Source: a virus. From it: DNA of 64,000 nucleotides. The notes beneath the pieces are model-generated. The model was given only the letters and a program-made list of their open reading frames with translations, was not told the DNA's origin and made no database searches. The position numbers and the translations under genes were made by a program. The stretch lies in the UHGV virus genome UHGV-0072281. One strand, written 5' to 3'. Within the stretch, counting starts at the first letter, position 1. Every line of letters begins with the position of its first letter. Positions 14,051 through 57,521 of the stretch are shown one piece after another.

Positions 14051-14096
14051 TTACCCTACTCCCGAGAGGAGTAGGGTAGCTTTTATTTTTTCTTAG
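14051..14096. terminator. bidirectional intrinsic terminator; copy 1 of a duplicated 47-bp module
   Basis: Hairpin taccctactcc-cgaga-ggagtagggta then gcttttattttttc; stop codon of minus gene (TTA 14093-14095) inside module. Confidence 0.8.
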
Positions 14097-15874
14097 TGGG
14101 TGGTTTTGATGTATTCAAACGGATCGGTAATAGCCTCACCTTGACGACGTAAGAATGCTTCTAACACAACGTTCTTATCTGGCAGTAAGAAGAAGTCTGT
14201 TGCAATTTCCATTGCATTAACACGCCCTGCGGTAAGGTTAATCCCTACACGACGTCGTACTTCTTCAGGAACACCATGAATACTCAGTAACTCGATTAAC
14301 GTTGTTTCACGAGACTGGTTCATCATGTTCGTTGCAGAAGGATACGCCTGGGTTAAATCCGCATCTGCGGTTTGCCCACGGAATGCAGTGTAGAAATCAT
14401 CAAACTCTTTAATGATTCCTCGCAGGCCGTTTTCCGCGTTCATACACGCAGTTAACGTAACAATCCAACCGTCCGTACCGATAACCTCTTCATCGAAATC
14501 ATTACGCATTGCACTACCTACACAACCGATAACTAATCCTTGTTCATAAAGGTAATAGGTGTAAGCAATACAAATACGTTTTGGTAACGAAGGGAAGATA
14601 TCGTACATCGAATAACCCGCCAGTACGGAAATTGCTGAAGACAAGTCGTTCGTCTTTTTATCCAACAACACAATCATCAGGTTATCGAAGATGTTGTAAA
14701 CGCAGTATTCGAGCGGGAACTCTTTCTGTGCTTTTAAGTGCCATTCCAGTTTCTCCTCGTAAGGCAGCTCTGGCAAGTCTAACTTGTTTAAGCCCAGTTC
14801 AGTTTCCAGAATAGCGTTAAGTTTGTAAGAAGGACGTTGACCTTCGTGAACCCGCAGTGAACGGAACAGACACATTGCATCCACACAGTAGAACGATGCG
14901 GTACAATAAAGTACGTGCCACTGTTGTGAAGGCGCTTTGGTCAGTGATTTCGATTCCGTTTTCTTCGATGCTTCGTCTTTCTTGAAGTAAACACGACGGT
15001 ATTGTTTCGGTACATCAGGATGACAAAAGACGTCTTCCGGCGGAATCCCTGCGGCTTCTAGTGCTTCTAACATGCGTGAAATATCGAACTCGTGGTTCCA
15101 TGCGACTAATAAGTCAGGTAGACGAGGGTGAATCTCTTCAAACATGCGTTGAATACAGCAGCCGGAGTTTAAGCATTCGTAAACGAAGATTTTATATCCG
15201 GCAATAACGTCTTTGATTTCGGTCTTAGAATTGCCTTCCTTGTCTTTGCCACGAAAAGCAATTTTAGAAAGTAACTCCTTCGCACGTTTAATTAGTCGCG
15301 CTTCGAAGTTCTCACGACCGCAACGCGCAACGTAGTCTTTCGTTGCGAAGAAATGAATTTCGTCATCCAAAACAAAACTCATAATCCAAGGGTCTCGAGA
15401 TTTGTCTTCTTCTCGAGTTTCCACGTCGTATACGCAAATACGGTTAGGTGAAACGGCGTTAGGCCATTTCTTTATATATCTTTCTTTAATCCAGCTGGTG
15501 ATGGGTAAGTCAGCCCAGTAAACGTACGGAGAGGTACAGACTTGACGTAATGAACGTTTTTTGTCAGGAAATCTTGCTCCTAGACCCATCTGGATAGTTT
15601 GTGACATCATCACATCCGTGGTCATGTATTCCTGACACTTACTGCGTTCTTCGTATTCTTTCTTTTCTTGATGGTTACGGTGTTGTGGTAAAGTAATGTA
15701 GATAGGCCGTTTCAGATTTTCACGCATGACGATACGCGGGATGAATCTGCCATCTTTAGTATGGACGACCTCCTTTATGAGCACGAAGTCGTTTTCTTTC
15801 TGCTGATCGGTTGCGTACGAAACAAATTTGCACTCTTTGGCAATAACGTCTTCCGGTGCGTAATAGTTATTCAT
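14093..15874 (-). CDS. family-B DNA polymerase-type 3'-5' exonuclease domain protein (possible N-terminal piece of a split DNA polymerase)
   Basis: 593 aa from ATG at 15874; Exo I-like ICVYDVETRE, Exo II-like WNHEFDISRML, Exo III-like YCVDAMCL in order; no YGDTDS-type polymerase motif seen. Confidence 0.5.
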   Translation of the reverse strand: MNNYYAPEDVIAKECKFVSYATDQQKENDFVLIKEVVHTKDGRFIPRIVMRENLKRPIYITLPQHRNHQEKKEYEERSKCQEYMTTDVMMSQTIQMGLGARFPDKKRSLRQVCTSPYVYWADLPITSWIKERYIKKWPNAVSPNRICVYDVETREEDKSRDPWIMSFVLDDEIHFFATKDYVARCGRENFEARLIKRAKELLSKIAFRGKDKEGNSKTEIKDVIAGYKIFVYECLNSGCCIQRMFEEIHPRLPDLLVAWNHEFDISRMLEALEAAGIPPEDVFCHPDVPKQYRRVYFKKDEASKKTESKSLTKAPSQQWHVLYCTASFYCVDAMCLFRSLRVHEGQRPSYKLNAILETELGLNKLDLPELPYEEKLEWHLKAQKEFPLEYCVYNIFDNLMIVLLDKKTNDLSSAISVLAGYSMYDIFPSLPKRICIAYTYYLYEQGLVIGCVGSAMRNDFDEEVIGTDGWIVTLTACMNAENGLRGIIKEFDDFYTAFRGQTADADLTQAYPSATNMMNQSRETTLIELLSIHGVPEEVRRRVGINLTAGRVNAMEIATDFFLLPDKNVVLEAFLRRQGEAITDPFEYIKTTH

Positions 15875-19415: not shown

Positions 19416-19462
19416 GTACCCTACTCCTTATCGGGAGTAGGGTAGCTTTTATTTTTTCTTAG
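19416..19462. terminator. bidirectional intrinsic terminator; copy 2 of duplicated 47-bp module
   Basis: Hairpin taccctactcc-ttatcg-ggagtagggta then gcttttattttttc; stem and flank identical to 14051-14096, loop differs. Confidence 0.8.
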
Positions 19463-22413
19463 TCTGCGCTGGTATCGTGACGGTTGTAAGCGATAACAAT
19501 ATCGTCTTTCAGACCGATGTCACCACTGGCTTCAATATCCAGTTTCTTACCAATCGTTGCACGTGCAGCTTCGGATACTACAGTAAACAGACGCATGTCT
19601 TTGTCTGGCCCCATCGCATCCAACTCAACGCCGATAATCGACGTGTCAAGCGTTTCGCTGAGCTTATTACCAATCTCTGTTGCCGAGATAGTAAGATGTG
19701 AACCCAAGTAGTCGTTGATAACTTGAGACGTTTTCTTACGGATCTGCGTTAACAGATCGCTGTTGCTACGGTTAGCCGCAGTCAGGTAATAACGAACGGT
19801 AAACTGGTTTTCAGCTGGTATCGGCGTAACCACCCCGTCTTCGGTACGTGCATCGATATAACCCATCGTGGTGATAGGAACGAAATACCCTTCCGTACGC
19901 TCTAACAACATCGGTTTTAACGTCGGTAGAACCACGGTCACGTAGTTAACGATATTCTCAATAACTGCGTTCAGATAGGATTTCGCAGACGCTGTGGTAG
20001 CGAATTTATAACGTGCGTCGAAGACCGCCATTTCACTACGGAACTTAATAGAACGAGATTTCGCAATCTTAGGATTACCGTACTCGTCTTTTACTAAGTC
20101 CCCTTCGTGGTGTAGGATAATCTGCTGGCCGGTTTCGTCAAGCTTAGGATCGCCTTTACGGTGTTCGTAAGTGATTTGTAGCGGTGGTGTACGGCCTGCG
20201 TCGTACGTGTAAACCGGAACCCCATTCTCATCACGTTTCACCACGTCAATTTCCCACGTCGCTAACACGTCTTTGTCGTAATACTCGTAGTTGATGCTGT
20301 CAGTAACAGCACGAGCTTTACGCCAATAGTACGTCATCGCTTTACCCAGTTCGATTTTGAATATCTCGTGAGTAATACCGATAGCGTCGCGAGAAGGCGG
20401 TATGATTAACGCATCCATCTCTACACGTTCGTAGTTCCCAGGGTAATAACCTGTACAACCGTAGAACAGGTTAAAATCTGTCAGCAGTGCGACAGGGGTT
20501 TCCGTTGGGTTACTTCCGTTAATACGGGTGTTGGTCAGTACCAGTTCGTCGTTACGGTCAACGTCCAGGTTAGTTTCCAGCAAGAACTCCCAAACACGTT
20601 CACTGCCCTGCTTACCGACTAACGTACCGTTAATGTACGCCAAGGTGTTATCGGAATTACGAGGACGGAAAGACAGTTGTGCAAAGACTTGGTCATCAGC
20701 CAGTGCCTGGTAAGGTGCTTCTGATTTCGTAACCGTACGCAGCACATAACCCGCTTCCGTTTTCTCGATAGTGTAGTCAGCAGTAACGACACTGAGCTCC
20801 GTCGAGACGTTGGTCGCAATAAAGCGTTTGGAGTTTAATACCGGTTTATCCAACTGGTAAATACGTACGTCAATCGCTTTGTTGTTAATGTCAACAACGT
20901 AATGGAACGGTGTAAACAAATAACGGTTAGTGTTTGCTGCGTTAATCAGGTCTTCCTTACGCATGGTCTTCGCTAACACCGTCATTTCGGCATCTACAGT
21001 TAGACTGGTATCCGTAAAGCGATACAGCGTGTCAGGAAGAATGGTCAGGCGATTACCGTTGACTTTCACCGTCGGGAGATTAACCAGCTCGTTCCAGGAG
21101 AAATAGAACGGGGCAGTAATCGTTCCTATCGGTGAACTGACGTTAGCAATCGTCGATTCCAACATCGGTGCGGTCATGAAGTACGTACGACTGGTCACGT
21201 AGTCGTTAGGTTTAGACAACATGAGACCGTAATCAGAAACCGTAGCCTCAAGCTGCTTTTCTGTCACGGGCAGTTTACGTGCACCTACGGCGTTGTTAAC
21301 AACGCGAGTACGTAAATCACTGAACGAAAGCTGACTACGACCACCCGATAGCATCTTCCCAGCTTTTGCTGCAAGCTGTTTAATAGAGAACGCTTTAATC
21401 GGGTTGATATAGTTCGCGTCGTATTCTTCGTTTAAATCGCGTAGGCTGAAACTATACTCGTCGGACGGATACGCAGAGATGTCCAATTCCAACGGCCCTA
21501 AGGTCGTAAAGACGTCCATCCTGATAGTCCCACTGACGAGATTCTTCGCCATGTAAATAGATGGAATCGTACAACGGATGTTGCCGTTACCCACCTGAAT
21601 CAATGCTGTTGGTGTGTTCGGGTCGTAAACATCACGACTGTGGGTGTGTTGAATCTCTACCCACTTGTTGCTGCCCGTTGCCTTCATCCAAACACGAACA
21701 TAGAAGAACTTGTTAGTGTAACTACGCGTCATGACAAACGTGTTGCTACCTTCGACGGTGTTACTTTCTTCTTTTACCGCATACTGCATCACCGGAATAT
21801 GGATAGCCAGTAGCTGTGAAGATGTTGTGTTAGCGGACGTTAGTTCCCATTCCAGTGCGTTCGTGGAAACTGGTGAAATCGGTGATTGTGTTTCAGTAAT
21901 CCACAGTACCTGGAAAGCCGGGTTCTCGTTCGTTCCGTACGGGAGTACACGGATTTCGATTGGATATTGAATAGCAAACGTGTAACCAGAAACCGTAAAG
22001 ACCGTGTCACGTGGGATAACGACTTTACGAACCCCCGCGATTTGCAACGGATACGCTTTCGAGATTAAGCTGTCAACGTCAATTAACAGTAACAGTTCTG
22101 TAGTAGCAGGCTGCGCAAAGACGTCAACGTAATCCACGTCTGACATGTGTCGGAACAGGTCATCGTAAGTCTGCGCCATTGACGGGAACGTTTTAGGAAT
22201 AGATTCCTGGAGTCCCATCAATGTAGCGTGCCCCATCATTGTTCCCATTTCTGCCAAATAAACGACAGGGTCGGTAGGGTCACGGAGATAAATCTGACCA
22301 TCGGCATCTTCAACATCTTGAAGCTGGTTTAGCAGCATTGTCTGCATCGCCGCAGGGTTGTGTGCGAACAGCAGAAGTTTCTTTGCCAAAGTATCGTAAG
22401 TTGTTGAACTCAT
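19459..22413 (-). CDS. hypothetical large protein (possibly virion structural)
   Basis: 984-aa ORF; TGATG-type junction with upstream minus-strand gene. Confidence 0.8.
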   Translation of the reverse strand: MSSTTYDTLAKKLLLFAHNPAAMQTMLLNQLQDVEDADGQIYLRDPTDPVVYLAEMGTMMGHATLMGLQESIPKTFPSMAQTYDDLFRHMSDVDYVDVFAQPATTELLLLIDVDSLISKAYPLQIAGVRKVVIPRDTVFTVSGYTFAIQYPIEIRVLPYGTNENPAFQVLWITETQSPISPVSTNALEWELTSANTTSSQLLAIHIPVMQYAVKEESNTVEGSNTFVMTRSYTNKFFYVRVWMKATGSNKWVEIQHTHSRDVYDPNTPTALIQVGNGNIRCTIPSIYMAKNLVSGTIRMDVFTTLGPLELDISAYPSDEYSFSLRDLNEEYDANYINPIKAFSIKQLAAKAGKMLSGGRSQLSFSDLRTRVVNNAVGARKLPVTEKQLEATVSDYGLMLSKPNDYVTSRTYFMTAPMLESTIANVSSPIGTITAPFYFSWNELVNLPTVKVNGNRLTILPDTLYRFTDTSLTVDAEMTVLAKTMRKEDLINAANTNRYLFTPFHYVVDINNKAIDVRIYQLDKPVLNSKRFIATNVSTELSVVTADYTIEKTEAGYVLRTVTKSEAPYQALADDQVFAQLSFRPRNSDNTLAYINGTLVGKQGSERVWEFLLETNLDVDRNDELVLTNTRINGSNPTETPVALLTDFNLFYGCTGYYPGNYERVEMDALIIPPSRDAIGITHEIFKIELGKAMTYYWRKARAVTDSINYEYYDKDVLATWEIDVVKRDENGVPVYTYDAGRTPPLQITYEHRKGDPKLDETGQQIILHHEGDLVKDEYGNPKIAKSRSIKFRSEMAVFDARYKFATTASAKSYLNAVIENIVNYVTVVLPTLKPMLLERTEGYFVPITTMGYIDARTEDGVVTPIPAENQFTVRYYLTAANRSNSDLLTQIRKKTSQVINDYLGSHLTISATEIGNKLSETLDTSIIGVELDAMGPDKDMRLFTVVSEAARATIGKKLDIEASGDIGLKDDIVIAYNRHDTSAD

Positions 22414-29168: not shown

Positions 29169-29203
29169 TTTACGACTTGTTTATTACGTTTAGGAGAAAT
29201 ATC

Positions 29204-29845
29204 ATGAGCCGCATTAATTTAACTGATTTTGTTGATGGTGTTGTAACTTTAGAAAGCAAAGGCGCGACCTTAGTTGCTCCGAATGCCAAAGTGCTGGATT
29301 TAAATCCTGTAGAAGTGATTGCTATTTCTACTTGGTTACGTTTGTCTTACGACAAGAAATTCGAAGGGTTAGAGAAAGAATCTCTAACTGTCAATACTCG
29401 TGAGTTTGTCTTTAAAGAAATCGACAGCGAAAAATTGGAAGCTTTCTCAAAACAGATGGTTAATCCACGTACAGACGGTGATGTCGGTATGCGCGAATAC
29501 AGTGGTGAAAAATACCATGCGTTTACTGATGCCCATGTTGCGTTGTGTGAGAAAGGTGAAGGGAGATTCGTTGCTGTTTGTTTCTTCCATTTAATCGCGC
29601 CGAAACAGAAAGATTTGCTGTTTGAAATCGCGAAGGATTCGGCAGAAGCGGTTATGGATACGATTGTTGAACTTTTCGAAGCGATGCGTGATATTCCGCG
29701 TGTGTTAGAAGTAAGTGAGGGACCTATGGATAGCTTTAAAATTCTACCATTGATTTATAGTAAGGACCATGAAGAGGAATGTACATTCGTCCTGTTCAAT
29801 GGTTCGATGGCTGCGTCTGTAAAACAGTTCGCTGCATCCATTTAA
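29204..29845 (+). CDS. hypothetical protein
   Basis: 213 aa from ATG 29204 with AGGAGAAA SD. Confidence 0.8.
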   Translation: MSRINLTDFVDGVVTLESKGATLVAPNAKVLDLNPVEVIAISTWLRLSYDKKFEGLEKESLTVNTREFVFKEIDSEKLEAFSKQMVNPRTDGDVGMREYSGEKYHAFTDAHVALCEKGEGRFVAVCFFHLIAPKQKDLLFEIAKDSAEAVMDTIVELFEAMRDIPRVLEVSEGPMDSFKILPLIYSKDHEEECTFVLFNGSMAASVKQFAASI

Positions 29846-37455: not shown

Positions 37456-37599
37456 ATGATTTCTGTAAAACACAAAAAAGCTATCTTCGCTGTTGTTATC
37501 GCTGTTGTTCTGGGTTGCCTGTACCTGGATATCGACAAAGGCTACGACACTTGCATCGACAACGGTAATTCCGTTGCGCAGTGCACTGGTCGTGGTTAA
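37456..37599 (+). CDS. small single-pass membrane peptide (47 aa)
   Basis: MISVKHKKAIFAVVIAVVLGCLYLDIDKGYDTCIDNGNSVAQCTGRG; AGGAG SD; optimal codons; own promoter-like element and terminator; too short for the ORF track. Confidence 0.65.
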   Translation: MISVKHKKAIFAVVIAVVLGCLYLDIDKGYDTCIDNGNSVAQCTGRG

Positions 37600-37653: not shown

Positions 37654-38469
37654 ATGATTACTATTAAAGATTATTTTCCGCGTGGGTTGAGCAATGAAAA
37701 CTTCGTTCCAACTGAAGACATTGCCATCGTTGCAGAGTCCAGCGATAAGTCTTTTAAACTCTACTTGAGTACGGCAGCAGGAAAATCCACTCTTATCCTT
37801 CGTGAACCTGAAGTGATAAGCATCTGCTCGTTTGGGGGTGGTGTAGAAGGAACGATTAACTGGTTGAAATCCAGAATGCATCGTTTGCTTATCGTGAATA
37901 CCGATCCTGTGATTCGTTTACAGCAATTGAAATCGTTGAATGAAATTATCGTCGGATTATTGGAACATGAAACGTTTGGTAATGCTGAGATTGCGGAAGC
38001 GATTAAATCTGTAGAACTAATCGAGTGGAGCGATATCGAATACGAACGTGCTGGGTTATTCGCAATGTACGGTGATGATAATCCCGTTGCGTTTGCACAA
38101 ACGTTGGATAATGTTACCGTAACAGCGCGCGTATTGTTTGGTTTACAACGTGTTGAGTTTGAACTGAAACACGTCTACGTGAGCAATAAACCGGAGATGG
38201 TGGAGACATTGATTCGTGCTTTCGCATACCCGTTAGACGGTGAATGGGAACAGCAGATTAATGAAGCGTTAGAAGCCATGCATTTCCTGGCTGAAACGTT
38301 AAGGAAGGATGAGAAATTGAAAGGTCGTGTTTATCCAGAACACGATTTTGTTTGTGAAGAATGTGGAGCACAGTATCAAATCCGTGTTCCTTTAACCGGC
38401 CTAACATTCCCGCAAGCCAACGTGCAATGTAAGGAATGTGGTCATGTTCAATACGTAGCGATTAAATAA
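37654..38469 (+). CDS. hypothetical protein with C-terminal zinc-ribbon-like Cys pairs
   Basis: 271 aa; GGAG SD; C-terminal CEECGAQ...CKECGH. Confidence 0.8.
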   Translation: MITIKDYFPRGLSNENFVPTEDIAIVAESSDKSFKLYLSTAAGKSTLILREPEVISICSFGGGVEGTINWLKSRMHRLLIVNTDPVIRLQQLKSLNEIIVGLLEHETFGNAEIAEAIKSVELIEWSDIEYERAGLFAMYGDDNPVAFAQTLDNVTVTARVLFGLQRVEFELKHVYVSNKPEMVETLIRAFAYPLDGEWEQQINEALEAMHFLAETLRKDEKLKGRVYPEHDFVCEECGAQYQIRVPLTGLTFPQANVQCKECGHVQYVAIK

Positions 38470-38475
38470 AAGCAA

Positions 38476-38518
38476 CCCCTAATCCCGAAAAGGATTAGGG
38501 GTACACTTTATTTATTTT
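38476..38518 (+). terminator. intrinsic terminator
   Basis: Hairpin cccctaatcc-cgaaaa-ggattagggg then T-rich run. Confidence 0.8.
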
Positions 38519-38541
38519 CGCTCTTAAAAGGAAATTGTGTC

Positions 38542-38697
38542 ATGAGAAATGTTAATGCAATGCTTAACCAGGCATTTGTTAACCAACAGCGTTTTCAGGA
38601 ACGCTTAGCACAACTTAAAACACAACACAGACCACCACAACAAAGAGTGGTTAAGAGCAAGTTCGGCGAAATGGTTTTCGAAAGAAAATCTTTCTAA
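38542..38697 (+). CDS. small basic protein, paralogue 1 of 3 (51 aa)
   Basis: MRNVNAMLNQAFVNQQRFQERLAQLKTQHRPPQQRVVKSKFGEMVFERKSF; AAAAGGAAA SD; not in ORF track (<60 aa). Confidence 0.55.
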   Translation: MRNVNAMLNQAFVNQQRFQERLAQLKTQHRPPQQRVVKSKFGEMVFERKSF

Positions 38698-38704
38698 TAA
38701 CCGT

Positions 38705-38731
38705 TAGGGGTGTGACAGCACCCCTTTTTAC
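38705..38731 (+). terminator. intrinsic terminator
   Basis: Hairpin aggggtg-tgacag-cacccct then ttttt. Confidence 0.7.
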
Positions 38732-38847
38732 GCTTTAACTTTTCCAAAGAGAAGTTAAAGCAGTAAGGACTGTTGGCGCAGTCCTTACTTGTCATCGCTA
38801 TTACAGAAACGTGATAGCACAATTCTAATTTTTAGAGGCGATCAGAA

Positions 38848-39015
38848 ATGTTCGACAGTATTACACAAATTTTTAACACTACCGTAAACAATCACGCTCA
38901 GCAAGCGAAGTTTAATGAACGATTAAGGGAAGTTCAACAATTAGGATTAAATAAAAGATTAAAATCTTCCAATAATCCTCGAGTACAGATCTTCACCGAA
39001 AGGAGAAGTAACTGA
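38848..39015 (+). CDS. small basic protein, paralogue 2 of 3 (55 aa)
   Basis: MFDSITQIFNTTVNNHAQQAKFNERLREVQQLGLNKRLKSSNNPRVQIFTERRSN; shares QLG-NKRLK-S-N---QI-TE-RS with paralogue 3. Confidence 0.6.
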   Translation: MFDSITQIFNTTVNNHAQQAKFNERLREVQQLGLNKRLKSSNNPRVQIFTERRSN

Positions 39016-39023
39016 TAAAAACA

Positions 39024-39053
39024 AGGTGAGCTGTTGGAGCAGCTCACCTTTTA
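39024..39053 (+). terminator. intrinsic terminator
   Basis: Hairpin aggtgagctg-ttggag-cagctcacct then ttt. Confidence 0.65.
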
Positions 39054-39111
39054 CAACGCCATTACGTTTCCGTAATGGATTTCTTTAATCACCCTACAAA
39101 GAGGGCTTACC

Positions 39112-39285
39112 ATGAACAATGGTTACTACTTTACTGACAAAATGCTTGCAGAACAATATGCAGCAAAAACCAATTTACAGCAACGTATCTACGAGTATAG
39201 TCAACTCGGTGCGAATAAACGATTAAAACCATCAACCAACCGTTTCACACAGATAATCACTGAAAAAAGGAGTGAACGCTACTAA
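39112..39285 (+). CDS. small basic protein, paralogue 3 of 3 (57 aa)
   Basis: MNNGYYFTDKMLAEQYAAKTNLQQRIYEYSQLGANKRLKPSTNRFTQIITEKRSERY. Confidence 0.6.
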   Translation: MNNGYYFTDKMLAEQYAAKTNLQQRIYEYSQLGANKRLKPSTNRFTQIITEKRSERY

Positions 39286-39420
39286 CTAATAAAAGGGGGT
39301 GTGCTACCACCCCCTACTTAGTTCAGCAGTTGTCTTTCGTTCATAAATATTAGATGTCTTGTTTTTTTTTGCTTTTCGGGACGCATAAGGGGTCGTAGGG
39401 GGAGCCGAAGCTCCCCAGAC

Positions 39421-40983
39421 TCAAAAGAGTTCGTCACCCATACCGCCTGTAAAGACGTTAATCGACGATGCAGTCACTGTTTCTTCTTTATCGCAATCCC
39501 ATGGCAGAATGCCAACTTCACGGAAAGGTATTACTGTATAATGGTAAGCTTCTTTAGTATCGATAATTGTACGGTGTTTACCACGTTGTACTTCTAAGTA
39601 ACTATGCCCATTGACAACACGTTTGTTAAAATACATCTCACCGTCAGCTTCGTTATCCAAGCTGGAGCAGTTATCGTAAAGACCGCGACCTGGTAAGTTC
39701 TTACAGAAACTTGCTGGGTCTAACGCTTTTAATTTTTTGCCTTCTGGTGAGATTTGGTGTGGCGCTAACAAGAAACCACGGTTACGTACTACCTGGATGT
39801 TTCGAGCGATACGATAAATTTCTTTAATGTCGCTACCGGCAATCCCGTTACCGTGACCTGCTTTACTGATAGTCCCGAAATAGTCTCCGCGAATCCCAGC
39901 TACATGATAACCTCGACGCTTTAAGTCCAGTATTAAGTCGTTTAAGTAATGTATTTTAAAATCTGAGTTTGTGTGTTTCTGAAAGATGTACTCCCAACCG
40001 TTAGCCCGCATTTTACTACAGAGGTAGTCCGACATTTTTGTGTTGTGTAAAGCTTTCTCTTCGTCGGTAGCGTTTTCAGAAGCAACCATAACCGGTGCTT
40101 CACCTTCAAAATGACCGTAGAGCGCTTGGTACGCATACGCCAAATTAACGTCCAGTTCGTTCTCTAAACTTAAATCGAGAATAACCGGCTGTAAATCCCC
40201 TTTAACGTTTTCCATTACCTTTTCAGGCGTATTGAATACCGGAATACTGATAGACAACAACAGACTAAAAAGCGATTTACAGTTAAAGGGCAGTGCAGGC
40301 ATTAGCCAAAGTTCTTCAGTAATCCCTTTGTTACAACCCAACATCTGGTTAATGGCTTTCCATCCGGTACGTAAACCATTACCCGCTGCTTTCTTACTGA
40401 TTGAGTCGAACACATGTACGAACGGTGCACGGTTATCCGTAATAAGTTCACCTACGAGTGAGGGAATCTTATTATGAGAGCGTTCACTGAACGTAGAGAG
40501 ACTATCTCTGAGGTCGTTGAGCGCTGTTTGTAAATCAACGCGCGTTTCGGTTCCGTTCAGTGCGCCTAACGTACGACCTAATTTTTGTTTCAGTTGTACG
40601 CCTTGAATAGCTTGACGTAATTGGAAGTAGTATTGTGCTACTTGACGGTTAAGATGCTCGATGCGTGCTTCTGGTTCTTCTGGAATATCATCTTCCAGGA
40701 ATTTGGTAATCGTATCGTATAGAGGACGTATTTGCGTAGTGGCCAGTTTCAAACGTTTCATGACGTTTGTGTGGTCGTAAGGCATACCGCCGTCTATGAT
40801 GGATGTGATGATATCCTTGATTTCGACGAGGGCGGCACGTTCGTCACCTTCCTCTACGTAATCAGGAAGCTTAGCCTCTAACAGCACTTTTCTTATGACC
40901 TCGTGATCCTTCTCAGGGTCGGTCAGCAGACTTTCAGTGTATAGTGTGGCTAATGCGGTTATCAACATCATTTTGTTATTCAT
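39421..40983 (-). CDS. hypothetical protein
   Basis: 520-aa ORF; start codon 13 bp from divergent gene start. Confidence 0.8.
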   Translation of the reverse strand: MNNKMMLITALATLYTESLLTDPEKDHEVIRKVLLEAKLPDYVEEGDERAALVEIKDIITSIIDGGMPYDHTNVMKRLKLATTQIRPLYDTITKFLEDDIPEEPEARIEHLNRQVAQYYFQLRQAIQGVQLKQKLGRTLGALNGTETRVDLQTALNDLRDSLSTFSERSHNKIPSLVGELITDNRAPFVHVFDSISKKAAGNGLRTGWKAINQMLGCNKGITEELWLMPALPFNCKSLFSLLLSISIPVFNTPEKVMENVKGDLQPVILDLSLENELDVNLAYAYQALYGHFEGEAPVMVASENATDEEKALHNTKMSDYLCSKMRANGWEYIFQKHTNSDFKIHYLNDLILDLKRRGYHVAGIRGDYFGTISKAGHGNGIAGSDIKEIYRIARNIQVVRNRGFLLAPHQISPEGKKLKALDPASFCKNLPGRGLYDNCSSLDNEADGEMYFNKRVVNGHSYLEVQRGKHRTIIDTKEAYHYTVIPFREVGILPWDCDKEETVTASSINVFTGGMGDELF

Positions 40984-56834: not shown

Positions 56835-57521
56835 ATGAAGGAATTGCAATTAAGAAAGCGTACTACTCTTATCCCCCTTAAGGAACTAAAACAGTGTCCC
56901 GTTTTCTACTCACCGAAAGATCACCTAGATTTATCTAAAGAGAAAAAGATTATTATTTCTGCCTTCCGAGAAGTAATCAATCTTCGTTATTTCGCGGCAC
57001 CAATGGATTGTGCTATCGAACATGCTATGTTGGATGGAAGAACGTCGCTTACAGTTTACGATTTGTTAGAAGAAAAGAATATCGGTATTGAAACTGGTAT
57101 ACTGAGAGTAAACAAAAATGAGTTATTAGAAAGTCAAAAACAACTAATGACAGGTGTTCAATTACTCTTAGAGCAATATGGCTTCTATTCGGAAAAACCA
57201 ACTTCTGCGGTATCTACACAACCCATCATCTGTGACCATGGGTTTGAGGTAGAATGGAAAACAATTCGAGGGCAAGATTTTATTTTAATACATTGGTTCG
57301 TTCCCTATCTTTGGAAAGAGCGTACCACAGTTTATGCTTTACTTGAATTCGCTGTCTACTGGAGCATTTATAAAAAAGAACGTGCTACTGCAATGAAAAC
57401 GGTAATGACCACACCGTTAAATCAACTTTTTACCTCTGGGTTAGAAACAGATTTTAACGAACTATGTACAACTATTTTCAAGATGGAGTATGGCTATGCA
57501 CCAGTTGGATATAACCGCTGA
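56835..57521 (+). CDS. hypothetical protein (AT-rich codon usage)
   Basis: 228 aa; GAGGAG SD. Confidence 0.75.
   Translation: MKELQLRKRTTLIPLKELKQCPVFYSPKDHLDLSKEKKIIISAFREVINLRYFAAPMDCAIEHAMLDGRTSLTVYDLLEEKNIGIETGILRVNKNELLESQKQLMTGVQLLLEQYGFYSEKPTSAVSTQPIICDHGFEVEWKTIRGQDFILIHWFVPYLWKERTTVYALLEFAVYWSIYKKERATAMKTVMTTPLNQLFTSGLETDFNELCTTIFKMEYGYAPVGYNR

Follow-up and report, generated by a model that had tools for sequence, protein, structure and literature searches.

This report concerns a tandem array of three genes of about 50 codons each, located at positions 38,542–39,285 of a 64,000-nucleotide stretch of the virus genome UHGV-0072281 (hereafter the window), which derives from an SPN3US-like (phiKZ-related) jumbo phage. 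The genes are joined by repeated modules of predicted hairpins, and what is new is such a hairpin-module cassette array, of a lineage-restricted mini-protein family, in a jumbo phage that encodes RNA polymerases (RNAPs). The reading we favor, and hold to be fairly probable, is that the array consists of cassettes of one mini-protein family shuffled by way of their hairpins, and that the proteins are accessory host-factor binders that form a swappable repertoire.

The small genes and their protein family

The original prediction placed three open reading frames (ORFs) of 51, 55 and 57 codons in this region, and these are exact, all on the + strand: ORF1 (type A, 38542–38697; 51 amino acids [aa], isoelectric point [pI] 11.7), ORF2 (type B, 38848–39015; 55 aa, pI 11.4) and ORF3 (type C, 39112–39285; 57 aa, pI 9.8). 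Each begins with ATG and has an AGGA/GAGG-type Shine-Dalgarno sequence 6–10 nt upstream, and the ORFs are AT-rich as had been proposed, with 34–39% GC versus 46% for the window and 42–43% for the flanking genes. The frames are kept in related phages and the substitutions concentrate at third codon positions, the opposite of the pattern named beforehand as refuting the proposal, with a synonymous excess (one-sided Fisher tests against orthologues) in ORF1 (ratio of nonsynonymous to synonymous proportions, pN/pS, 0.15; p = 0.047, from only 5 substitutions), ORF2 (pN/pS 0.17–0.20, p about 1e-7) and ORF3 (pN/pS 0.17–0.23, p 1e-4 to 1e-3). ORF1 is 100% identical in an Enterobacter ludwigii record (NZ_CP134650.1), and protein motifs are kept between genera whose DNA can no longer be aligned. 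In some relatives an in-frame upstream ATG lengthens the ORF3 orthologues to 70 aa, but the 57-aa protein is the conserved form, as this ATG is out of frame in other relatives. On these substitution patterns we take the three ORFs to be genuine protein-coding genes, and the tandem diversification of coding ORFs that had been proposed is supported.

The three proteins were also predicted to be paralogues, and the motifs quoted as shared among them are correct. ORF2 and ORF3 are 36% identical with a Smith-Waterman z of 14.5 (0/2000 shuffles), and for this pair the relationship is plain; ORF1 is not demonstrably related to either by direct comparison (z = 0.9 with ORF2, not significant; z = 2.4 with ORF3, marginal), and joins them only through intermediates. 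It does match SPN3US gp71 (z = 5.1) and gp72 (z = 4.9), annotated 48-aa proteins from the same gap, to which it is the closest of the types. Relatives of the window code for additional types, including A' (52 aa; MKHEQLFQRLNELSVKQLEFQRRVSEIAQPTLTQPKVAYPRNTQLIVERRSN), D (61 aa) and E (53–56 aa; MNDYQLQMFNAAMRNREKQIQFNQRMDEYVRLGLVAAPKTSNNQNIQQPYVRRTGY). Type A' is linked to ORF1 (z = 5.5), ORF2 (5.8), ORF3 (4.4) and gp71/gp72 (4.8 and 5.8), and type E to ORF2 (13.8), to the SPN3US (S) type (6.8), to A' (4.8) and to type D, which looks unrelated by direct comparison and is joined to the family through E (z = 7.0).

A hidden Markov model (HMM) of the S type, built only from sequences of Seoulvirus and Machinavirus, genera other than that of the window, finds ORF1 at E = 3e-4 and A' at 5e-3; ORF2 and ORF3 score E = 0.35–0.37, and they and their orthologues rank above essentially all of 1,833 background stop-to-stop segments of the window. 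With an HMM made from types B and C, A' is recovered at 1.4e-4. From the intermediate links and the cross-genus HMM rankings, ORF1–3 are paralogues in the broad sense. These comparisons indicate that all of the types (A–E and S) form one clade-restricted family that includes SPN3US gp71 and gp72, with ORF1 appearing to lie on the SPN3US-like branch and ORF2 and ORF3 on a derived one.

In PHROGs the counterpart of the family is phrog_18219, which has no assigned function; its model matches gp71/gp72 at 1e-27 and ORF1 at E = 0.086 over the full length, and does not match ORF2 or ORF3. Searches of 5.8 billion proteins gave 40 near-identical clusters, all tiny and all from this phage group, and among 1.84 billion proteins there are eight true family representatives. 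There is no family copy in 185,579 species-representative genomes and no further one elsewhere in the window. The array gap has no match by blastn or tblastn in 50,697 GenBank phages, and with the direct DNA and tblastn searches empty, the homology to the small SPN3US proteins emerged only from synteny and profile analysis. Profile searches of the ORF1–3 proteins against Pfam, NCBIfam, PADLOC and PDB sequences gave nothing significant.

The likeness to SPN3US gp71/gp72 (SPN3US_0071/0072; ACQ60_gp195/gp194) extends beyond sequence. These genes occupy the same gap between the gp70 homologue and a helicase and are co-oriented with gp70; the proteins are of similar size (47–57 aa), basic and Gln-rich, sharing an F-x-x-R-(L/V) helix motif and, towards the C-terminus, a hydrophobic strand with K/R after it; and the genes are in tandem, with a GGGGTG...CACCCC-type hairpin after each. 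They differ in that only ORF1 is detectably similar to them directly, ORF2 and ORF3 being derived subtypes not represented in PHROGs, and in that Seoulvirus has a fixed pair without the Hb/Hc joint described below.

Proteins of all types have a pI of 9.8–11.7, a net charge of +3.5 to +6.6, a grand average of hydropathy (GRAVY) of about -1 and no cysteine, and their Gln/Asn content is mostly 18–27%, with the exception of type D (8%). AlphaFold2 models made with the family alignment have, for ORF2, a single helix (residues 2–34; predicted local distance difference test, pLDDT, 75–86) followed by an extended low-confidence tail, and for ORF1 a helix (residues 2–28) and a beta-hairpin (35–39/42–46, RVVKS-KF-GEMVF; pLDDT about 60), which corresponds to the R-x-I-K-G-L-G-G-D-I-I-F motif of the SPN3US type. 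Across the alignments of types A, B, C and S only Met1 and the Arg of (F/L)-x-x-R-(L/I/V/M) are invariant. Proteins of one type hardly differ in their C-terminal half (pN/pS 0.10–0.13 for ORF2), whereas the first 15–20 residues drift; between types the C-terminal tails are radically different. Foldseek comparisons with PDB and BFVD all gave E > 1. For the C-terminal strand, a beta-clamp-binding motif (QL[SD]LF) was considered and set aside on inspection, as the conserved positions do not fit.

Hairpin modules and cassette rearrangement

Nine terminator-like sites are present where 1.2 are expected, and at least seven hairpins lie within 850 nt, all of them between the ORFs and none inside. The 148-nt ORF1–ORF2 spacer is predicted to form four hairpins in a row (-62.6 kcal/mol, z = -8.9), and the ORF2–ORF3 spacer two (z = -5.3). 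The joint between cassettes is a three-hairpin module of ~90 nt, composed of a predicted terminator (Ha), a hairpin conserved in sequence (Hb) and a covarying hairpin (Hc), after which a leader hairpin (Hd) precedes the ORF, and the same module builds every inter-cassette spacer.

Reading rightwards on the + strand, the terminator hairpin of the gp70 homologue (T0, 38475–38521) has its stem-loop at 38475–38502 followed by ACACTTTATTTATTTTCGC, a tail kept ahead of the first cassette in SPN3US and pEa_SNUABM_10. Ha (38706–38729; GGGGTG-TGACAG-CACCCC and T5) is a terminator hairpin at the 3' end of cassette A; its general form is (A)AAGGGGTG-loop-CACCCCTTT, it belongs to the upstream gene, and its GGGGTG/CACCCC stem is kept even in SPN3US. 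Hb, the shared joint (38732–38761), is a 13-bp AT-rich hairpin (GCTTTAACTTTTC CAAA GAGAAGTTAAAGC), with the 30-nt form GCTTTAACTTTTC-(C/G)AAA-GAGAAGTTAAAGC across modules. Next are the B-type Hc (38762–38789, 11 bp), which covaries across loci and forms the 5' boundary of the B cassette, and the B-type Hd (38797–38818, 8 bp), a leader hairpin ~30 nt before the ORF2 start codon. After ORF2, the C-type Hc (39021–39052, 12 bp and then TTTT) is at once terminator-like and the 5' boundary of cassette C, and is followed by the C-type Hd (39059–39078; CCATTACG-TTTC-CGTAATGG). The two Hc hairpins share the core CTGTTGG(C/A)GCAG, and the stem sequence of Hc (11–12 bp) tracks the type of the downstream gene. 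Hd is in general an 8-bp hairpin 25–35 nt before the start codon and is specific to the ORF type (GCTATTAC.. for B, CCATTACG-TTTC-CGTAATGG for C, GGCTAACG.. for D and G(C/T)CAAC.. for E); the C-type form is invariant before every type C gene, with its loop flipped to GAAA in one relative (L014). The array is closed by an Ha-like hairpin at 39294–39315 (AGGGGGTG-TGCTAC-CACCCCCT) with a U-tract only on the minus strand, which fits better as a terminator of the convergent helicase gene, and which probably also ends helicase transcription, as judged from its sequence.

Each of the three genes had been predicted to lie in a cassette bounded by its own terminator, which is only partly borne out. A hairpin with a T5 tract does follow ORF1, and Ha with its U-tract also follows most cassettes in the relatives, but the site after ORF2 is marginal, with its TTTT partly inside the stem, and the hairpin after ORF3 has no U-tract on the + strand. 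The bounding elements constitute a multi-hairpin module shared between cassettes rather than simply one terminator per gene.

In an alignment of 19 modules, in which counts are of sequences rather than of independent events, 96.5% of cells are paired, versus 86.5% in shuffles (0/500 reach the observed value) and 44–58% in slid registers. Hc has compensatory double changes at 7 of its 11 pairs and is 99.5% paired; in Hb, 9 of 13 pairs never vary and a T.G wobble is invariant. Only the + strand allows this wobble and the other G.U pairs, which points to a role in the sense transcript or in single-stranded DNA of the + strand.

Hb is absent elsewhere in the window, and its only IMG/VR occurrences are in the same locus of four related contigs (150–225 kb), which rules it out as a genome-wide signal. 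Elsewhere in the window strong hairpins are isolated single terminators, and no Rfam family matches the hairpins of the locus. The canonical terminator tail of the window is CTTTTATTTTTT, with six exact copies versus about 0.1 expected. We also note two near-identical terminator modules (TACCCTACTCC..GGAGTAGGGTAG and CTTTTATTTTTTCTTAGT) at 14051–14097 and 19417–19463, on the same strand and 5.4 kb apart, which could be recombination partners flanking a module.

The gap contains no family copy in Erskinevirus, one in the Machinavirus pEa_SNUABM_10, two in Seoulvirus and three in the window, and the copies are in the same syntenic position in SPN3US, Proteus phage 7 and pEa_SNUABM_10. Among relatives 88–98% identical to the window in the helicase gene, there are at least seven cassette types and their orders differ. 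Twelve arrays were distinguished: A-B-C (the window), A-C, A-E, A'-E, A'-B-E, A'(truncated)-B-C, x-B-C, x-B-D, x-D-C, A'-C-E(frameshifted), x-C-E and x-?-E. The first slot is always taken by type A or A', B stands ahead of C, D or E, and C and D/E are found in either order; no array has two copies of one type among A–E, and Seoulvirus has two S-type copies, gp71 and gp72.

Some relatives at 98% identity in the helicase gene drop to 76% in the gp70 homologue, and others show the opposite; these reciprocal patterns on its two sides place the array at a mosaic junction. Compared with the E. ludwigii record, 50 kb of the window are 96–97% identical and just four segments are replaced; the array itself, where E stands in place of B and C, is one of them, and the 5' half of the gp70 homologue is another. 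The third (29177–29845) contains a terminator-bounded 222-aa ORF absent from NZ_CP134650.1 (638 nt versus 173 nt), and in the fourth (56835–57521) a 228-aa ORF is swapped for a non-homologous segment of similar length. The suggestion that the genes fill a moron-like accessory gap between two larger genes agrees with these comparisons (0–3 copies, at least seven types, and one of the four replaced segments in 50 kb).

Several breakpoints can be placed within the hairpins. Two relatives (L017 and L018; 97% and 95% identical on either side) lack a 255-bp block present in the window at 38763–39017, which runs from the Hb/Hc junction to the next Hc and comprises precisely Hc(B)-Hd(B)-ORF2. In other relatives, the Ha-Hb-Hc block found after ORF1 in the window stands behind genes of type B or D. 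In three relatives (L009, L010 and L011) Hb is chimeric, with its left arm of one variant (..AAC..) and its right arm of another (..GAT..), which places crossovers inside Hb. Hairpin loops are often exact reverse complements between near-identical relatives (TTGGCG/CGCCAA, CCTATA/TATAGG, TTACCG/CGGTAA and TTTC/GAAA), at 38779–38784, 39034–39039 and 39067–39070 of the window and at the corresponding loops of L007–L027, which argues for frequent flipping at the DNA level within the inverted repeats. These sequence comparisons show the locus to be accessory and hypervariable, with cassette boundaries in the hairpins.

Some copies are damaged. Four relatives (L007–L010, 2714–2836) have a type A' cut down to 40 aa, type E is frameshifted in L014 and L015 (3402–3571), and type C variants (P0003 and P0004) have a frameshifted C-terminus at a GAAAAAAGG run, which could be a sequencing error of the Logan assemblies. 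The truncated and frameshifted copies are signs of cassette decay.

The organization is reminiscent of the promoter-early stem-loop (PeSL) mobile regulatory cassettes of T4-type phages, described as composite modules of a sigma-70 promoter and a stem-loop that lie on either side of ORFans, end transcription, and give rise to modular shuffling and mini-circles (Arbiol et al. 2010, PMC2839356; Comeau et al. 2014, PMC4122927). In both, small repeated intergenic modules with a terminator stem-loop (here a predicted one) flank short ORFs of unknown function within a hyperplastic region, the end points of indels and replacements between close relatives fall in the modules, and just behind the module every ORF has a start codon and a Shine-Dalgarno sequence of its own. 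They differ in that the array has no sigma-70-like promoter, its module is found at one locus whereas PeSLs occupy about 50 sites per genome, its joint is a tri-hairpin with a covarying member, and its shuffled ORFs all belong to one protein family whereas those between PeSLs are unrelated ORFans. By this analogy the locus would work like a PeSL region, but it is not a PeSL.

Proposed mechanism and alternatives

One cassette comprises Hc, a type-specific Hd leader, a Shine-Dalgarno sequence, an ORF and a predicted Ha terminator, with Hb joining the cassettes. The strand-specific pairing and the terminator features argue that the hairpins act in the sense-strand transcript, where Ha would terminate and insulate, and Hb, Hc and Hd would shape mRNA ends, stability, processing or translation. 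As they are repeated along the array, the hairpins would also serve as a recombination substrate, and by analogy with PeSLs the short homologies that they provide would allow recombination to add, delete, replace and reorder cassettes. In the favored reading, the common helix might be a scaffold from which a type-specific C-terminal tail binds a type-specific macromolecule of the host (or of a rival); to judge from the high positive charge, that partner may be acidic or a nucleic acid. In line with the host-takeover or anti-defense role first suggested, the array might then be a re-assortable repertoire of accessory host-modulating or counter-defense factors rather than core machinery.

Small phage-encoded host inhibitors include lambda Kil and CIII, T7 Gp2 and Gp0.4, and ORF104 of Staphylococcus phage 77. 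The array proteins resemble these in being ~50 aa long and mostly one helix with a tail, and in being accessory and, as these often are, in a variable region, early in the case of the inhibitors; they differ in having no similarity of sequence or fold to them, and in their tandem diversification within one family, which is not typical of such inhibitors.

Several observations weigh against the favored reading. There is no sigma-70 -35/-10 match in any spacer, the sole + strand match being inside ORF3, and no recurring AT-rich early-promoter-like motif upstream of the ORFs; with no promoter located, separate transcription of the cassettes and one leaky polycistron are not distinguished. PADLOC gave no match, and nothing ties the proteins to defense systems. 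The ORF1 selection test has low power, the spacer copies that underlie the covariation counts are related by descent, the overall confidence of the AlphaFold2 models is just ~68–71 and below 65 in the C-terminal tail, and the whole-helix hydrophobic moment, taken as a measure of amphipathicity or coiled-coil character, is not above that of shuffles. The basic charge and the replication-gene neighborhood would fit just as well with a role in the DNA or RNA metabolism of the phage.

The lack of a sigma-70 promoter at the array is as expected, as phiKZ-like phages use their own RNA polymerases (PMC7598289). An AT-rich motif has been described for the early promoters of the virion RNAP (PMC5312081, PMC7598289), and the middle and late promoters of phiKZ-like phages are said to be unpredictable. 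The 10-mers from the three upstream regions gave no recurrence signal elsewhere. Two candidate promoter sequences were rejected: CTTTATTTATTTTC, upstream of ORF1, is not enriched, and the over-represented 12-mer CTTTTATTTTTT is the U-tract of the canonical terminators.

One alternative is that the small proteins are nucleic-acid binders that act on the phage itself, as autoregulators recognizing their own Hd or as partners of the helicase or the gp70 homologue. Their high pI and net charge are in keeping with this, as are the strict one-to-one linkage of ORF type and Hd, ~30 nt before the start codon, and the position of the array between an essential non-virion gene and the replicative helicase gene. 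However, the linkage of Hd and ORF is expected from physical linkage within the cassette alone, the proteins have no similarity to known RNA- or DNA-binding folds, and Erskinevirus keeps the same neighbors without any family copy, so that no core replication step depends on the family. We consider this alternative unlikely.

The exchange of cassettes could instead be the work of a dedicated, self-contained system of a nucleus-forming-type jumbo phage, in which the strand-specific folded Ha-Hb-Hc joint is a recognized substrate for capture and excision, and the tails of one mini-effector family neutralize different host factors or defenses. If so, the array would embody an integron-like logic without a known integrase and would provide each phage lineage with a rapidly re-assortable repertoire of specificities, but we regard this as distinctly improbable.

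A narrower proposal, and to us a very improbable one, is that general homologous recombination is not what drives exchange, and that a dedicated enzyme catalyzes it site-specifically at folded hairpins; this could be a structure-specific nuclease, an HUH enzyme of the IS200/REP type or an integron-like (attC-type) system. The array does share with integrons its short ORFs split by imperfect hairpins, the conservation of structure over sequence, the strand asymmetry, and cassette numbers and orders that vary between close relatives. Hc is kept in structure and not in sequence, like attC sites that fold as single strands, Hb is conserved in sequence with its invariant strand-specific T.G wobble and is confined to this locus, and the reverse-complement loops reveal hairpin or cruciform events in the DNA. 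Against this, no recombinase gene flanks the array, and no integrase, attI or Pc is found at it, a search that covered only the flanking locus and not the rest of the genome. The array hairpins include canonical terminators, and the breakpoints vary in position, some being at the Hb/Hc junction, some within the Hb loop and some at Hc. Repeats of 30–90 nt are ample for phage homologous recombination, as for PeSLs (PMC2839356), and the order of slots is not free, with A or A' always first. The resemblance to integrons is in logic only.

Another possibility is that the small proteins are packaged in the virion and injected with the DNA, like the products of the hypervariable T4 internal protein locus (such as IPI*, which acts against GmrSD); here too the locus is hypervariable and the proteins are small and basic, each with its own regulatory signals. 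The T4 internal proteins share a conserved N-terminal capsid-targeting sequence with a prohead-protease site. In the array proteins the N-terminal 15–20 residues are the most variable part, whether proteins of one type or of different types are compared, so that this feature of T4-type targeting is missing. The SPN3US-type phage is reported to eject many head proteins (PMC7411985), but the virion and maturation proteomics papers on SPN3US that were searched make no mention of gp71 or gp72, although very small proteins are easily missed in such work. Packaging is, in our judgement, highly improbable. The last alternative, that the ORFs are spurious and the region consists only of terminators and structured non-coding RNA, could appeal to the hairpin density and folding energies, to the size of the ORFs (all under 60 aa) and to the type A gene left unannotated in NZ_CP134650.1, but is essentially refuted by the synonymous excess in all three frames, the protein motifs shared with SPN3US where blastn finds nothing, the Shine-Dalgarno sequences, the placement of the hairpins between and not inside the ORFs, and the lack of an Rfam match.

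Genomic setting and implications

The array lies between two larger genes, as had been predicted. Upstream is a homologue of SPN3US gp70 (37654–38469, + strand; RefSeq gp196), a 271-aa protein with a C-terminal double CxxC zinc ribbon; SPN3US gp70 is reported to be an essential non-virion protein (PMC5105663). The 5' half of this gene is mosaic among the relatives, and in the otherwise 96–97% identical E. ludwigii record 37681–38083 is represented by a divergent allele of the same length. Another conserved gene of fewer than 60 codons is found at 37456–37599; it codes for a 47-aa protein (MISVKHKKAIFAVVIAVVLGCLYLDIDKGYDTCIDNGNSVAQCTGRG) with a predicted transmembrane helix and a conserved tail containing C..C, and is the orthologue of SPN3US ACQ60_gp200. 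The genes gp199–gp197, which are located 3' of ACQ60_gp200 in SPN3US, are missing from the lineage of the window.

The gene 3' of the array (39421–40983, minus strand) is convergent with it and codes for a 520-aa DnaB-like replicative helicase, recognized as Pfam divDNAB in relatives, whose DNA is ~78% identical to that of SPN3US, the Erwinia phages phiEaH2 and Asesino, and others. Just past the helicase stop codon, at 39340–39420, the + strand reads a T8-10 run and then two hairpins (..GGGACGCATAAGGGGTC.. and GGGGAGCCGAAGCTCCCC), an arrangement conserved in three genera (also L001 3990–4067 and L004 2420–2482). The hairpin at the 3' end of the helicase gene is not a canonical terminator, as no U-tract follows it on the helicase strand; from their sequence, these hairpins may be a 3' stabilizer or a protein-binding site. 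The sole Rfam match is a chance CrcZ fragment.

Close relatives with genomes of ~220–228 kb are present in metagenomes, Logan assemblies and IMG/VR. Two further relatives, 95–98% identical to the window, are filed as circular, non-mobilizable 'plasmids' of ~222 kb: NZ_CP173450.1 (L026), from a human urinary E. coli isolate (98232), and NZ_CP134650.1 (L027/L028), from a gull-cloaca E. ludwigii isolate. Both are probably jumbo phage genomes carried in the cultures. The Prokaryotic Genome Annotation Pipeline (PGAP) annotated one of the two small cassette genes in each record, and missed the type A or A' gene (type A in NZ_CP134650.1).

Genes of ~50 codons can be validated by comparative genomics, which matters in SPN3US/phiKZ-type jumbo phages, studied as therapeutics and for their unusual cell biology, as most of their small genes are unannotated or uncharacterized. 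The array is one of very few spots at which near-identical phages differ, where determinants of host range or counter-defense are expected, and its candidate effectors, of at least seven types, form a short and concrete list for testing. For transcript insulation and processing in phages of this kind, the covarying, strand-specific RNA structure offers a tractable model, and the array extends the idea of hairpin-module shuffling from sigma-70-dependent T4-type phages to a phage with its own RNA polymerases.

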